A DNA stretch of 28,874 nt from contig CAJTOR010000005.1 of the NCBI GenBank assembly GCA_910577675.1, positions 1-28,874 of the forward strand. Reading direction: 5' to 3'. The position numbers were made by a program, and so were the translations under genes. Below, piece by piece: positions 1,716 to 28,874 of this stretch; the stretch's first letter is position 1; the number at the start of each line of letters is the position of its first letter. Origin of the DNA: an uncultured Lachnospiraceae bacterium (GTDB taxonomy: Bacteria > Bacillota > Clostridia > Lachnospirales > Lachnospiraceae). The notes under the pieces were generated by a model. It did no database searches and was not told the DNA's origin. It saw only the letters and a list, made by a program, of their open reading frames with translations.

Positions 1716-3104
1716 ATGGAAGTACTTATTACTGTAAGTGTTGTTGCTCTGGTGCTGTTCGCTGCCATAGCGGGGATTTTGTCGCGCTACCGAAAATGTC
1801 CGTCGGATAAGGTGATGGTAATCTATGGTAAAGTCGGCACGGATAAGGACGGGCAGGCGCGCAGCGCAAAATGTATCCACGGCGGAGCGGCGTTCGTTGT
1901 GCCGGTGCTCCAGTCGTTCCAGTATCTGGATCTGACACCGATCTCGATCAATGTTGATTTGCGCAACGCGCTGTCAAAGCAGAATATCCGGGTTGACGTA
2001 CCGTCCCGCTTTACCGTCGGTATCTCAACGGAACCGGGTATAATGCAGAATGCGGCGGAGCGCCTTTTGGGGCTTAAATTAAATGAGATACAGGAACTTG
2101 CCAAGGATATTATTTTCGGTCAGCTTCGCCTTGTTATCGCGACGATGGATATTGAGGAGATCAATACTGACCGCGATAAGTTTTTGCTAGCTGTTTCAAA
2201 GAATGTCGAGATTGAGTTAAAGAAAATTGGTCTTCGCCTGATTAACGTAAATGTGACCGATATCACCGATGAATCCGGCTATATCGAGGCGCTTGGTAAG
2301 GAGGCGGCGGCGAAGGCAATCAACGACGCGAAGAAGAATGTTGCGGAGAAAGACCGTGACGGTGAGATTGGCCAGGCTATAGCACAGAAGGATCAGCGTA
2401 TCCAGGTGGCAGCCGCAAATGCGAGCGCTATCCAGGGGGAGAATGACGCGAAGATCGAAGTGGCTCAATCCGAGGCAAACCGCCGTGAAAAGGAGGCGGA
2501 TGCCCTGCGTATTGCGACCGCGGCGGAGGCAGTGCAGGCGGCGCGCGCAAAGCAGGAAGCTTATGTGGCACAGCAGGAGGCGGAGAATACCCGCGCGCAG
2601 CTTGAGAAGGCAACACAGCAGGCGGATGTCATTGTCAGGGCACAGATAGAGAAGGAAAAAGCTGAGATTGCAGCGGAAGCCGAGGCTGAGGTAATGCGCC
2701 GCAAGGCACGGGGCGAGGCGGACGCGATCTATGCGAAGATGGAAGCGCAGGCTAAGGGCGCACAGGAAATTCTTGAGAAGCAGGCGGAAGGTATGAAGCG
2801 GCTTGTCGAGGCGGCGGGCGGCGAGGCAGGCGACGCTGTGAAGCTGATTGTCGCGGATAAACTTGAGGAATTGATGAAGATACAGGTGGATGCCATCAAG
2901 GGAGTTAAGATTGATAAAGTCACAGTCTGGGACAGCGGCAGCAAGGGCGACGGGAAGACGGCGACAGCGGATTTTCTTTCCGGGATGATGAAATCGGTTC
3001 CGCCGCTAAATGAATTGTTTAAGCAGGCGGGGATGGAACTGCCGGGGCTGCTTGGAAAGGAACATGGCGAAGAGGAAATGACGGAAAAGAAACAGGAAGC
3101 ATGA
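1716..3104 (+). CDS. Flotillin-like SPFH/band-7 protein (FloT/YuaG-type) with N-terminal membrane anchor and long Ala/Glu-rich coiled-coil region
   Basis: N-terminal TM helix MEVLITVSVVALVLFAAIAG, then an SPFH core (KVMVIYGKVG...VDLRNALSKQNIRVDV...), then EA-repeat-rich coiled coil. AGAGGG RBS present. Operon partner of the upstream NfeD gene. Confidence 0.85.
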   Translation: MEVLITVSVVALVLFAAIAGILSRYRKCPSDKVMVIYGKVGTDKDGQARSAKCIHGGAAFVVPVLQSFQYLDLTPISINVDLRNALSKQNIRVDVPSRFTVGISTEPGIMQNAAERLLGLKLNEIQELAKDIIFGQLRLVIATMDIEEINTDRDKFLLAVSKNVEIELKKIGLRLINVNVTDITDESGYIEALGKEAAAKAINDAKKNVAEKDRDGEIGQAIAQKDQRIQVAAANASAIQGENDAKIEVAQSEANRREKEADALRIATAAEAVQAARAKQEAYVAQQEAENTRAQLEKATQQADVIVRAQIEKEKAEIAAEAEAEVMRRKARGEADAIYAKMEAQAKGAQEILEKQAEGMKRLVEAAGGEAGDAVKLIVADKLEELMKIQVDAIKGVKIDKVTVWDSGSKGDGKTATADFLSGMMKSVPPLNELFKQAGMELPGLLGKEHGEEEMTEKKQEA

Positions 3105-20428: not shown

Positions 20429-20541
20429 GGGGGAATCCTTTCTGTGGTAAATTATAAATAATATATAATTATTTATCGGAAGATTGTGGGGAAAATATAA
20501 GGGAATCCCAAATTCTTTTTTATCCTCTTCCAGCAAGAAGA

Positions 20542-20562
20542 CTCCCACCTCTTAGGTGGGAG
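20542..20562. promoter_or_regulatory. Perfect 9-bp/3-nt-loop hairpin or palindromic operator CTCCCACCT-ctt-AGGTGGGAG in the divergent intergenic region
   Basis: Read directly. Not followed by a T-run on either strand, so more likely a dimeric-regulator site than a terminator. Confidence 0.4.
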
Positions 20563-20594
20563 ATGAATTGTGACCCTTATCCACTTGACTTTTG

Positions 20595-20624
20595 TTGGCA
20601 TTTGGGATGGAGGAGTGGTATAAT
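20595..20624 (+). promoter_or_regulatory. Sigma-A-like promoter with extended -10 (-35 TTGGCA, 18-nt spacer, TGgTATAAT) upstream of the GNAT gene
   Basis: Hexamers read directly. ~165 nt upstream of the ATG at 20788. Confidence 0.45.
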
Positions 20625-20787
20625 TAAAGTAATAAATATATTTTAGGGATTTTGTAAATGAAATTTTGGGAATGGAAAAATATGGGAACTAAACAAGCAG
20701 GTTTGTCCACTGTGTGGTAATATGGCGATTGTCCGCCGTAAAGATCTGCGATGGATATATGCCCGCCTGATAGTTAAGGAGAACGAG

Positions 20788-21204
20788 ATGGAATTGAAAG
20801 TAGTGACAGAGTATGATAAAGAATTTGTTATGAGTATTGATAAGCATGTGGACGATGTGGCTTATGCCAGCCGGGTATATACAAAATCCGGTTATGTTAT
20901 CTGGGTGGGAGATGAGCGGGCTGGAATAATATCACATTGTATTCTGTGGGATAATCTTCCATTTATGAATTTACTATTTGTTAAGGAGGAGTACCGGCAT
21001 AAAGGGTATGCAAAGCAGGCAATTATCAGTTGGGAAAATGAAATGAAAAAACGGGGTTATAAGATGACGCTGATTTCCACGCAGGTTGATGAGGGGGCAC
21101 AGCATCTGTATAGGAAACTGGGATATGTGGATTGCGGTGGATTGGTATTTCATAACACGCCGTTTGACCAGCCCATGGAAATGTTTTTTAGGAAAGTTTT
21201 GTAG
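20788..21204 (+). CDS. GNAT-family N-acetyltransferase
   Basis: AAGGAG RBS 6 nt upstream of ATG. Acetyl-CoA binding motif A region: LFVKEEYRHKGYAKQAI...RKLGY. Low GC relative to the flanks. Confidence 0.8.
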   Translation: MELKVVTEYDKEFVMSIDKHVDDVAYASRVYTKSGYVIWVGDERAGIISHCILWDNLPFMNLLFVKEEYRHKGYAKQAIISWENEMKKRGYKMTLISTQVDEGAQHLYRKLGYVDCGGLVFHNTPFDQPMEMFFRKVL

Positions 21205-21409
21205 GTGAGTTTTGTAAGTAAGTTTTGTGAGTAAATCTCATACAAAACTGATTTGTTATATTATGAAAATGGTTTATGGATTAGTTCGATTTCGTGCATT
21301 GAAGATAACTATTTTTTACACATTCGGTTAAAATAGGGCTTGGCAGGGATAATTAATCTGCTTTACATGAAACGTTTTGCCACCGCGAAACTATCTTTCC
21401 CATCTCATA

Positions 21410-21443
21410 GCGGCAGTAGAAAAAAACTCTGCCGCCTTTTTTG
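21410..21443 (+). terminator. Intrinsic terminator (GCGGCAG-N12-CTGCCGC + TTTTTTG)
   Basis: Stem and U-tract read directly. Lies ~200 nt downstream of the GNAT stop. Confidence 0.55.
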
Positions 21444-21624
21444 TGTATTTTACGGGGGAATTATTATAATTTTGATTGATAACTTGACATGGGGATGTGC
21501 AGTATGATATCTTAAACTATCCGAAAAAATAATTGGGGGCGGGGGAAATAGTATAATTTTAGAATTTTGACAAAGCGGTTGGTGGAAAGTCTAGCACAGG
21601 CACTGGAAAAATGGAGGGATTTTT

Positions 21625-22293
21625 ATGCTGTTGATTCAGAACATTCGACTTAGTTGGGATAAAAATGAGCGCGGGGCAAAAGGTGAGGATGTGCGCCGTT
21701 CATTTCCGCCCGCCTATCCGGTGGGACATCAGCTTTTTGGGGAGGCAGTTGTCCAGAACCTGTACTTTTATCAGGAAGAAGACCGCATAATGGATTATAA
21801 TCAGGCAGAATATTTTTTCATGGAAAAGAGTCTGCCGCGAATCGGGTTTACGAAGGAGCAGGCAGCAGAGGAGGCAAAAAAGCGGATTGAATGGACAAAA
21901 AAGCATCAGTACCAGAGCTATCCTTCCATCGATGCGCTGAATTTGGCGAACCTGTCCGTCTGTGCAAAGGAAAATCAGGTAGAGATCACATTTTTCTATG
22001 ATGAACAGCGCAGCGGCGTGCCCGTCCGCAGAGGACATAACAAGGATTTCCTAAATCCGGACTCAAGGTTTTACCAGAAGGATAATCTGAATGAAACTGC
22101 CTTTATATTAGGAAAAAATCAATATGGGCGGATTATATGGAATGAGAGAAAGGTGGATTACGACCAGGGGACATGGTATTATGAATTCCATATTTATAAT
22201 TTGATTTATTTAACAGAAAATAAATTCCCGGATAATATTTTTCTTCAGACCGAGCCTGATTATATATATCGCCAGCTTGCAAGACTGTATTGA
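21625..22293 (+). CDS. Hypothetical protein (222 aa, soluble, Tyr/Asn/Phe-rich, low GC), no recognisable family
   Basis: GGAGGG RBS 7 nt upstream of ATG. Clean ORF. AT-rich codon usage distinct from the core genes. Confidence 0.6.
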   Translation: MLLIQNIRLSWDKNERGAKGEDVRRSFPPAYPVGHQLFGEAVVQNLYFYQEEDRIMDYNQAEYFFMEKSLPRIGFTKEQAAEEAKKRIEWTKKHQYQSYPSIDALNLANLSVCAKENQVEITFFYDEQRSGVPVRRGHNKDFLNPDSRFYQKDNLNETAFILGKNQYGRIIWNERKVDYDQGTWYYEFHIYNLIYLTENKFPDNIFLQTEPDYIYRQLARLY

Positions 22294-22449
22294 TTTCGCA
22301 TGGCGGGGACAGATCAGTTATTGTATTGTTTCGGGAAATTTTTTGCAGTTTCCCCGTTTTGGAAATTAAATATATATTTTTGTATAATAAAACAGGGAAA
22401 CTGCAAGGATGTTTAATTTTAAACAGAGTTAAGAATATTTCTCCGATTT

Positions 22450-23940
22450 CTATAATGTATGGATAAATTTAAGGAACGCTTCTTTCCCCGATGGGGTGCG
22501 CTTAAATACACCTGCGTCGGCGAGAACCTCGGCAAAGACTGCGCCGATTTCCTCCTTCACGATATCATTTGCATTCTCTGCCGCAATATCATTCCTGCGC
22601 GCGCGGATCTCATTAAGCCAGGTGGCATGTGGTTCCATCTCCGGATGTTCTTTTATATCGACACCGTTTAAAAGCATTTCTGCCATTGTGCCAAGCTCAT
22701 TTGCAAGCCGCCCCGGGAGCACGGCGAGCCCCATCACCTCAATCAGTCCGATATTTTCCTTTTTGATATGGTGAAGCGTTGGGTTCGGGTGGTAAAGACC
22801 GAGCGGACGCTCCTTCGTTGTCAGGTTATTGCGCAGAACAAGGTCACATTCAAAAAGTTCGCCGCGCCTGCGGGCAATCGGTGTGATTGTATTATGCGGT
22901 GTGCCATCCGTTTCGGCGAAAACGGTTGCCGACTCATCCGTGTAAGCCCTCCACGCGTTAAGCACCTTTGCGCAGGCGCGGGAGAGTGTGGTGCGGTCGG
23001 CACTCTGTAAGCGGATTACGGACATCGGCCATTTGACAATGCCAGCCGTGATATTTTCAAAACCCGGGAGCATGAAATGTTCCTCAATCGGCGCGGTTTC
23101 CATAGCGAATGTGTAATGCCCGCCCTGGAAATGCTCGTGACTCAGAATTGAGCCGCCCACAATCGGAAGGTCAGCGTTGGAGCCGATAAAATAGTGGGGC
23201 AGGAATTCGAGAACATCAAATAACTTATCAAATACTGCATTGTCAATCTGCATCGGAATATGTTCCTCGCGGAATACAATACAGTGCTCATTATAATAGC
23301 CGTATGGGGAATATTGTAAATACCATGCCGAGCCATTTACCGTCATCGGAACCGGGCGAAGGTTCTGGCGTGCCGGGTGGGAAACAGTGCCGGCGAAGCC
23401 TGTATTTTCGATGCAGAGTTGGCAGGCAGGGTAGGAAACTTTGGTGGCAAGTTTCGCCGCGGCAATGTCGCGCGGGTCTTTCTCCGGCTTTGAGCGGTTG
23501 ATTGTAATATCGAGCGAACCGTATTCACTCTCGTAAACCCAGTGTAAATCTTTTGCAATGCGCGCGGCGCGGACATAGTCGGTGTCCTTGCTGAACTGAT
23601 AGTACCAGTCGGTTGCAGCCTCGGGACTTTTTTCGTACACTTCTTTAAATTTTGAGATCACTTCCCTTGGCATAGGGGTTAAAATTCCCATCAATTTAGT
23701 GTCGAAACGGTCGCGGGCGGAAGTTGTGTCCTCGATGATGCCCTGTAGTATGGCATGGTCAACCAGTGCGGTTAAGATTTCTTCAAGCGGGAGTTTTTCC
23801 GTGGGAGTGGGGGTTTCCCACTGGGAAACATGCAGCACATCCATAAGCTGGTTGCGCGCGCAGATTTCATCATCCGCGGTAATAAGGTTCCTTGCAATGC
23901 CGTAGTCAAGCAGTGCCTTTATTGCATCGATAACGTTCAT
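22450..23940 (-). CDS. galT: UDP-glucose--hexose-1-phosphate uridylyltransferase (galactose-1-phosphate uridylyltransferase, long type-2 Firmicutes form)
   Basis: 496-aa ORF. The N-terminal ~100 aa and the conserved core (NRSKPEKDPRDIAAAKL...LQYSPYGYYNEHCIVF...GSNADLPIVGGSILSHEHFQGG...) are recognised as type-2 GalT. An AAAGG SD lies upstream. Confidence 0.82.
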   Translation of the reverse strand: MNVIDAIKALLDYGIARNLITADDEICARNQLMDVLHVSQWETPTPTEKLPLEEILTALVDHAILQGIIEDTTSARDRFDTKLMGILTPMPREVISKFKEVYEKSPEAATDWYYQFSKDTDYVRAARIAKDLHWVYESEYGSLDITINRSKPEKDPRDIAAAKLATKVSYPACQLCIENTGFAGTVSHPARQNLRPVPMTVNGSAWYLQYSPYGYYNEHCIVFREEHIPMQIDNAVFDKLFDVLEFLPHYFIGSNADLPIVGGSILSHEHFQGGHYTFAMETAPIEEHFMLPGFENITAGIVKWPMSVIRLQSADRTTLSRACAKVLNAWRAYTDESATVFAETDGTPHNTITPIARRRGELFECDLVLRNNLTTKERPLGLYHPNPTLHHIKKENIGLIEVMGLAVLPGRLANELGTMAEMLLNGVDIKEHPEMEPHATWLNEIRARRNDIAAENANDIVKEEIGAVFAEVLADAGVFKRTPSGKEAFLKFIHTL

Positions 23941-25756: not shown

Positions 25757-25810
25757 GTCACTGATGCGTTCTTTGTCAAATAGAGGGAGGATGCGGGGCA
25801 GTTGTTACTT

Positions 25811-25884
25811 CGAGGCGTGGCTCAGTTTGGTAGAGCGCTGCGTTCGGGACGCAGAGGTCGCAAGTTCGAATCTTGTCGCCTCGA
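25811..25884 (+). tRNA. tRNA-Pro (anticodon CGG)
   Basis: Cloverleaf folded by hand. Acceptor pair CGAGGCG/CGCCTCG, D-arm GCTC-AGTTTGGTA-GAGC, anticodon stem-loop CTGCG-TTCGGGA-CGCAG with G37, T-arm GCAAG-TTCGAAT-CTTGT, discriminator A. CCA not encoded. Confidence 0.9.
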
Positions 25885-25904
25885 TTTTGTGCGAAAGCGC
25901 AAGT

Positions 25905-25977
25905 GCTGGAATAGCTCAGCCGGTAGAGCACTTCACTCGTAATGAAGGGGTCGTCAGTTCAAATCTGATTTCCAGCT
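25905..25977 (+). tRNA. tRNA-Thr (anticodon CGU)
   Basis: Acceptor pair GCTGGAA/TTCCAGC, D-arm GCTC-AGCCGGTA-GAGC, anticodon stem-loop CTTCA-CTCGTAA-TGAAG, T-arm GTCAG-TTCAAAT-CTGAT, discriminator T. CCA not encoded. Confidence 0.9.
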
Positions 25978-28380: not shown

Positions 28381-28407
28381 GATATGCCAAAATATCTTTA
28401 CATAACG

Positions 28408-28477
28408 GCGGGTGATTGGGTGGTGGGGATAAAGAGTGGGAGATAAGGAAGGGGAGTGGGGAAATGGAGGAGGGGGC
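28408..28477 (+). repeat. Polypurine G-tract-rich segment (GGGTGATTGGGTGGTGGGGATAAAGAGTGGGAGATAAGGAAGGGGAGTGGGGAAATGGAGGAGGGGG)
   Basis: About 70 nt that is >90% purine on the plus strand, with repeated GGGG/GGGAG runs. It lies between the kinase gene and the IS607-like gene. Confidence 0.6.
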
Positions 28478-28568
28478 TATATTCGCATATTTCAAATTTG
28501 GGGAAAAATGTAAAAGCATAAGGAGATAATATTAAGTTATTGAAAATATACACAAATAGGTTTATATA

Positions 28569-28577
28569 TGATATAAT
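28569..28577 (+). promoter_or_regulatory. Extended -10 promoter element (TGaTATAAT) upstream of the IS607-like tnpA
   Basis: Read directly. Followed by an AGGAG RBS 8 nt before the ATG at 28606. Confidence 0.45.
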
Positions 28578-28605
28578 GTGTTTATAAAAGAAAGGAGACA
28601 CTTTT

Positions 28606-28874
28606 ATGAACACGTCAAATATCACAAATTATAAACCAAAGGATTTTGATGAATTATTAGGAGTATCGGTTAAAACTTTGCAACGTTGGGACAGAGATGG
28701 GATATGAAAAGCGAATCGTACTCCTACTGACAGAAGATATTATACTTATGACCAGTATTTACAATTCAAAGGTATAAAAACAAAGAATGATCGAAGAGAT
28801 ATCGTGATTTATGCAAGAGTTTCTACAAGAAATCAAAAAGATGATTTGCAAAATCAAGTGGATTTTTTAAAACA
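28606..28874 (+). mobile_element. tnpA: 5' part of an IS607-family transposase gene (tnpA, serine recombinase with N-terminal MerR-like HTH), interrupted by an in-frame TGA at 28705-28707; truncated by the window end
   Basis: Translation MNTSNITNYKPKDFDELLGVSVKTLQRWDRDGI*KANRTPTDRRYYTYDQYLQFKGIKTKNDRRDIVIYARVSTRNQKDDLQNQVDFLK. The HTH (SVKTLQRWD...RTPxxRRYY) and the catalytic-Ser region (IVIYARVSTRNQKDDLxxQ) are hallmarks of IS607-type TnpA. The reading frame is continuous apart from the single TGA. The gene is very AT-rich relative to the host. Confidence 0.7.

Follow-up and report, generated by a model that had tools for sequence, protein, structure and literature searches.

In the serine transposases of IS607, IS1535 and ISC1926, a MerR-like HTH at the N-terminus precedes the catalytic domain of a serine recombinase (Chen et al. 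2018, eLife, PMC6188088; Boocock and Rice 2013, PMC4058570), and tnpA is the only gene needed for transposition (PMC6188088). In the ISFba1-type, the IS607 TnpB uses an reRNA derived from RAGATH-18 (PMC11061315; PDB 8IAZ); TnpB together with the reRNA cuts DNA beside 5'-AGGAG (Ren et al. 2024, Cell Res, PMC11061315), a motif that was determined experimentally as the target-adjacent motif (TAM) of ISFba1-type TnpB (PMC11061315). Damaged transposase genes are no rarity in these elements, as 30% of the TnpAs at RAGATH-18/IS607 loci were found to be pseudo-proteins with a frameshift or an internal stop (Ren et al. 2024, PMC11061315).

The DNA analyzed here is a stretch of 28,874 nucleotides (hereafter the window), which breaks off 350 bp into an insertion sequence of the IS607 family, after its left end with the AGGAG target motif, a promoter-like site, a ribosome-binding site (RBS) and codons 1–89 of tnpA, with an in-frame TGA at codon 34. 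This copy is very probably a decaying, non-autonomous member of an ISFba1-type IS607 sub-lineage that carries a single Leu34 nonsense change and was probably moved by a helper.

The left end of the element in the window

A previous reading of the sequence alone (the sequence-only reading) had set the left limit of the element at 28566, which is too far to the right: homology with other copies is already present from 28517–28520, and the first base of the element (28526) is uncertain by 1–3 nt. The other signals described in that reading, namely a TG-extended -10 and an AGGAG RBS, were recovered at the positions given in Table 1. From the ATG, the tnpA frame reads MNTSNITNYKPKDFDELLGVSVKTLQRWDRDGI*KANRTPTDRRYYTYDQYLQFKGIKTKNDRRDIVIYARVSTRNQKDDLQNQVDFLK and is open to the window end, with the TGA at codon 34 as its sole stop, as had been described. 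Pfam placed the MerR HTH (E 1e-9) on this fragment, together with the beginning of the Resolvase domain, and the catalytic serine motif (YARVSTxxQ) is present as IVIYARVSTRNQKDDL at codons 66–81. The NCBIfam model for IS607 family transposases was matched with E 1e-20 and 74 bits, a score that lies under the curated cut-off of 110 because just 79 of the 187 profile positions are present in the window; a conceptually repaired full-length sibling TnpA (Leu restored) reached 218 bits against NF033518 over positions 2–187 (same cut-off), so that the proposed IS607-family tnpA, with a MerR-like HTH preceding the serine-recombinase motif, was borne out by the Pfam domains and the repaired sibling. 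The PDB matches of the TnpA catalytic domain were 6DGC, 6DGB, 3LHK and 3ILX, all IS607-family TnpA. The element is also as AT-rich as had been claimed (28% GC in the IS part vs. 48% in the host part of the window). The window closes on the beginning of codon 90 (CA, Gln or His), which matches the Gln of intact relatives; most siblings with the TGA have CTG (Leu90) there. An Rfam search of the window returned two tRNAs and nothing else.

Table 1. Features of the window, with positions counted from its first letter
Feature	Position	Strand	Remark
Acetyltransferase-like ORF	20722–21204		in lower-GC stretch
222-aa ORF	21625–22293		no Pfam match; in lower-GC stretch
Two adjacent tRNA genes, tRNA-Pro (CGG) and tRNA-Thr (CGT)	25810–25977	+	
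AAGGAG, host side of left junction	28520–28525	+	includes the 5'-AGGAG TAM of ISFba1-type
IS607-family left end with 5' leader of tnpA	28526–28605	+	99–100% identity to siblings L084, L085, L086; 95% to L003
Promoter-like site TACACA, 17-nt spacer, TATAAT, TG before -10	28549–28577	+	consensus match only
AGGAG ribosome-binding site of tnpA	28593–28597	+	8 nt 5' of ATG; read from sequence
tnpA codons 1–89 plus 2 nt	28606–28874	+	ATG at 28606; cut at window end
MerR-like HTH	TnpA residues 11–46		
In-frame TGA, codon 34	28705–28707	+	Leu nonsense mutation (TTA to TGA); Leu codon in relatives
Start of serine-recombinase domain	TnpA residues 66–88		
Catalytic Ser73 of TnpA	28822–28824	+	

The AAGGAG that precedes the left junction in host DNA probably served an interrupted host gene as its Shine-Dalgarno sequence. 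(A)AGGAG also stands at the left junctions of related copies, with the exception of one insertion site (site C, represented by L083 and L087), and in L006 the AGGAG motif belongs to host coding sequence (PEGAFY motif).

The AGGAG target of the family is at the same time the core of the Shine-Dalgarno sequence, and of the 48 related loci for which a right flank is available, 35 have an ATG no more than 16 nt from the right end of the IS that opens an ORF of 60 aa or longer; as a rule, then, the insertions separate the RBS of a host gene from its start codon. No mention of insertion between a Shine-Dalgarno sequence and a start codon was found in the literature searched. Elsewhere in the window, a purine-rich, G-run-rich tract (GGTGATTGGGTGGTGGGGATAAAGAGTGGGAGATAAGGAAGGGGAGTGGGGAAATGGAGGAGGGGGC) occupies 28400–28480, between the end of a sensor-kinase-like gene (28380) and the IS, and a stretch of lower GC content (38–41%) extends from 20500 to 22500.

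Codon 34 in relatives and the distribution of the TGA allele

A genome scan that considered one genome per species yielded 494 relatives, of which the best 80 were used; most of these belong to Bacillota of the gut or rumen, including Lachnospiraceae and Erysipelotrichaceae. In agreement with the Leu expected by the sequence-only reading, codon 34 encodes Leu in all of these best 80 of 494 (TTA, CTA, CTG, CTC, TTG or CTT), and none of them has TGA at this position. The nearest relative among them (L003, 95% nucleotide identity over 359 nt) has TTA, therefore one T-to-G change suffices for the stop in the window. TTA accounts for 11 of the 17 Leu codons in the tnpA of the TGA lineage, and a stop would result from 6.2% of the single-base changes that are possible in this gene. 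Judged by its alignment with relatives, the TGA at codon 34 is an ordinary Leu (TTA) nonsense mutation in an IS607-family transposase gene. Translation would then break off at residue 33, inside the HTH and short of the catalytic Ser73 and, with the stop placed ahead of the catalytic domain, the window copy should yield no transposase.

A near-identical intact master copy (> 97% aa) was not found in protein-database, genome and DNA-pattern searches. The top 120 protein-database matches were all shorter than 160 aa, and truncation of the whole family was considered as a candidate explanation; it was rejected, as the genomic loci mostly carry an intact tnpA of 212–229 aa. Genes cut off at contig ends, or split in gene calling, probably explain many of the short database matches.

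Disruption of tnpA is frequent among the relatives: the gene is broken in 13 (19%) of the 69 copies with a complete tnpA region from the best 80 of 494, by internal deletions, frameshift or nonsense codons, and tnpB is intact in nearly all of them. Independent nonsense codons were encountered in L030 (another Leu-to-TGA change) and in L045 and L065 (TAA), as well as in the metagenomic L091, which is outside the 69-copy set. Defective and intact copies reside in one genome both in Anaerostipes sp. 992a (L008, L011 and L023 beside L006) and in Firmicutes bacterium M10-2 (L045 and L065 beside L020 and L036), and in these two genomes defective copies with one common lesion stand at different sites.

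The copies with internal tnpA deletions (L008, L011, L014, L021, L023, and L034) have nevertheless a full-length, stop-free tnpB. Relatives thus lose tnpA and keep tnpB, which makes the TGA lineage, where both were lost, unusual.

A look-up of the exact 33-aa product retrieved nine contigs from eight sample assemblies (L083–L090), and the TGA is also present in L001, the window's locus in another assembly. A DNA pattern scan of metagenomes added three further TGA copies (L092–L094) together with L091, a relative that has TTA at codon 34 and a different nonsense codon. The allele was found in 11 other sample assemblies (ENA, Logan, metagenome scan), with some of the contigs spanning the whole element, and there was no match for it in viral contigs. 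The contigs found for the window's own locus (via a neighbouring host protein) all stop within the IS. Judging by the flanks, no fewer than four insertion sites are occupied: A (window, L001, L002), B (L084, L085), C (L083, L087), and D (L092); in addition, the right flank of L094 differs from those of sites B and C. Flank GC content ranges from 37 to 48% among the TGA copies, which may thus reside in more than one host or genomic region. The window and its siblings have 357 nt in common, over which they are 99% identical. The recent pseudogene that the sequence-only reading had offered as its first explanation stands as far as the change from TTA to TGA is concerned, with Leu in the relatives and TTA in L003; the word "recent" holds in part, as the allele occurs in copies that diverge from each other by up to 4% and at several sites.

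Lesions and relaxed constraint in the TGA lineage

In the siblings the full element measures approximately 2.03 kb and is composed of tnpA, an overlapping tnpB and, after tnpB, a RAGATH-18 RNA (RF03064, 69–76 bits; detected in sibling L085 at 2001–2073 and in relative L080), thus the tnpB that had been predicted just past the window end has its counterpart in the siblings. The right end of the element is conserved (...TATTTTGAGTRGCAG), and the junctions of L006, looked at as a single locus, fit a shared AG without duplication, the lack of terminal inverted repeats and of target-site duplication being a criterion of the IS607 family. The intact TnpB of relative L080 matched PDB 8IAZ with E 1e-169. 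All nine TGA siblings that reach tnpB have a 23-bp deletion in this gene, called against L080 (the closest intact relative, 87% nucleotide identity) and L006, by which the frame is shifted after about residue 65. Further frame disruptions downstream had been named in the sequence-only reading as the mark of simple decay, and the deletion in the siblings is of this kind. The window's own copy, seen to codon 89, would be expected to have the deletion as well, given the siblings' 99% identity to it. With regard to autonomy, tnpA is not translatable in the window copy, and a TnpB of about 390 aa is not intact in any of the nine siblings. Additional damage was noted in individual copies: in L093 the tnpA frame is interrupted again by a nonsense mutation of codon 110, and the tnpB of L094 contains extra stops.

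Two of the TGA copies begin with the left end of another sub-family (positions 1–168 of L083 and 1–178 of L087, about 75–85% similar to L067, L057, and L024); with this foreign left end and no AGGAG at the left junction, they are mosaic or rearranged elements. In tnpB, a tract densely packed with changes is common to L086, L089, and L094.

Between intact lineages, the dN/dS of tnpA is 0.03–0.09. The close TGA copies differ by nine nonsynonymous vs. three synonymous changes in tnpA (P = 2e-4 under an omega of 0.07; compatible with neutrality), and the extended set, in which three more diverged copies were added, by 28 vs. 17 (omega about 0.4), so that within-lineage omega amounts to about 0.4–0.7, in a test that is weakened by the mosaic tracts. 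Constraint on tnpA is relaxed within the TGA lineage. For the C-terminal portion of tnpB in L083–L094 (about +800 to +1754, counted from the ATG of tnpA) there were 33 nonsynonymous and 52 synonymous changes (omega about 0.15). Such variation, selected rather than neutral in appearance, is odd for a pseudogene; our guess is that it stems from recombination with functional relatives or from mixing during the assembly of low-coverage metagenomes, and it could also reflect residual function. There are no indels between TGA copies that are up to 4% diverged, and most of these copies are without a further tnpA lesion.

Intact elements are moved by TnpA, a serine recombinase that carries its HTH at the N-terminus. 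The defective sub-lineage, whose full-length members combine the TGA in tnpA with the frameshifting tnpB deletion, have intact ends and occupy several sites, would have spread as a non-autonomous element mobilised in trans by the TnpA of intact relatives in the same cell. Mobilisation in trans appears likeliest in view of the intact ends and the dispersal of the lineage, and recombination between copies may add to both its spread and its mosaic structure.

Nothing came to light in support of the read-through that the sequence-only reading had also listed. One form of it supposes that UGA-A is leaky, with low-frequency read-through by tRNA-Trp providing a trickle of full-length TnpA (L34W), in which case the lineage would be self-mobile and the stop would act as an attenuator. 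UGA followed by A, as well as Gram-positive hosts, are known for UGA leakiness, and an A indeed follows the codon (TGA AAA). A leaky stop would account for the persistence of the allele at no fewer than four sites, in copies with as much as 4% divergence, and for the remainder of the 233-codon tnpA frame having stayed open in most copies, with no indels between them. We nonetheless regard it as improbable, since the nonsynonymous-to-synonymous counts of tnpA within the lineage are far over those of functional lineages, L093 has acquired its second nonsense codon, and the tnpB deletion in the same lineage is a sign of general decay. Moreover, the stop has not recurred at codon 34 in other sub-lineages (0 of 80, best 80 of 494), the Leu at this position is invariant and Trp may not be tolerated there, and no stimulatory RNA structure was detected 3' of the codon (z = -1.4). 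Recoding to selenocysteine was also considered and rejected: the fold 3' of the TGA is weak (-12.1 kcal/mol, with the same z), there is no SECIS-like hairpin, and homologues have Leu.

That the TGA arose through faulty sequencing or assembly, at a contig end that falls in a repeat, is far less credible still. The window does end in a multi-copy repeat, and L001 differs from it at four positions, all within the IS part, which suggests either genuine polymorphism or that IS copies were mixed where contigs end; however, the identical TGA is present in the 11 other sample assemblies, including contigs over the entire element, and the doubt about the assembly that had been raised earlier does not hold.

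TGA terminates 4 of the 19 long host ORFs in the window, among them the flotillin-like gene (1716–3104) from which the sequence-only reading had rightly concluded that TGA is a stop codon in the host; none of these 19 ORFs contains an in-frame TGA. A donor's code is an equally remote explanation: that the element came from a donor with UGA as a sense codon (code 4, Trp; code 25, Gly), with the TGA as a relic of the donor's code, has the low GC content of the element (28–33% vs. 48% in the host) as its sole support and is hardly tenable, because the aligned residue is an invariant Leu that no UGA-sense code would give, the full-length siblings have one TGA per 233 codons with Trp28, Trp117, and Trp147 all encoded by TGG, the tnpB frames of intact relatives have no in-frame stops and those of sibling L085 no in-frame TGA, relatives can end tnpA on TGA (L080), and all 80 relatives are from Bacillota genomes or gut MAGs with code 11, low GC being a trait of the family. 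A false lead on genetic-code reassignment is thereby removed.

Comparison with described elements

A decaying, non-autonomous copy with a Leu34 nonsense change would be one more defective member of a well-characterised transposon family; what a doubly defective lineage spread over sites and samples adds is that it suggests trans-mobilisation in this family. Siblings and relatives match the ISFba1-type in architecture, including a tnpB of about 390 aa in its intact form, and the window copy, represented by its initial 350 bp, likewise has 5'-AGGAG at its left end. Unlike intact ISFba1-type elements, the sub-lineage has both genes broken, by the TGA in tnpA and, in the siblings, by the tnpB deletion and, as far as could be told, such a doubly broken sub-lineage has not been named so far. 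With the IS607, IS1535 and ISC1926 serine transposases, the window copy shares the order of HTH and catalytic domain, whereas its protein would end at residue 33. MITE-like non-autonomous IS derivatives that are moved in trans resemble the TGA lineage in their intact ends, dead transposase gene and several dispersed copies, but the TGA lineage is full length rather than miniature, and in its case trans-mobilisation is the probable rather than the observed mode of movement.
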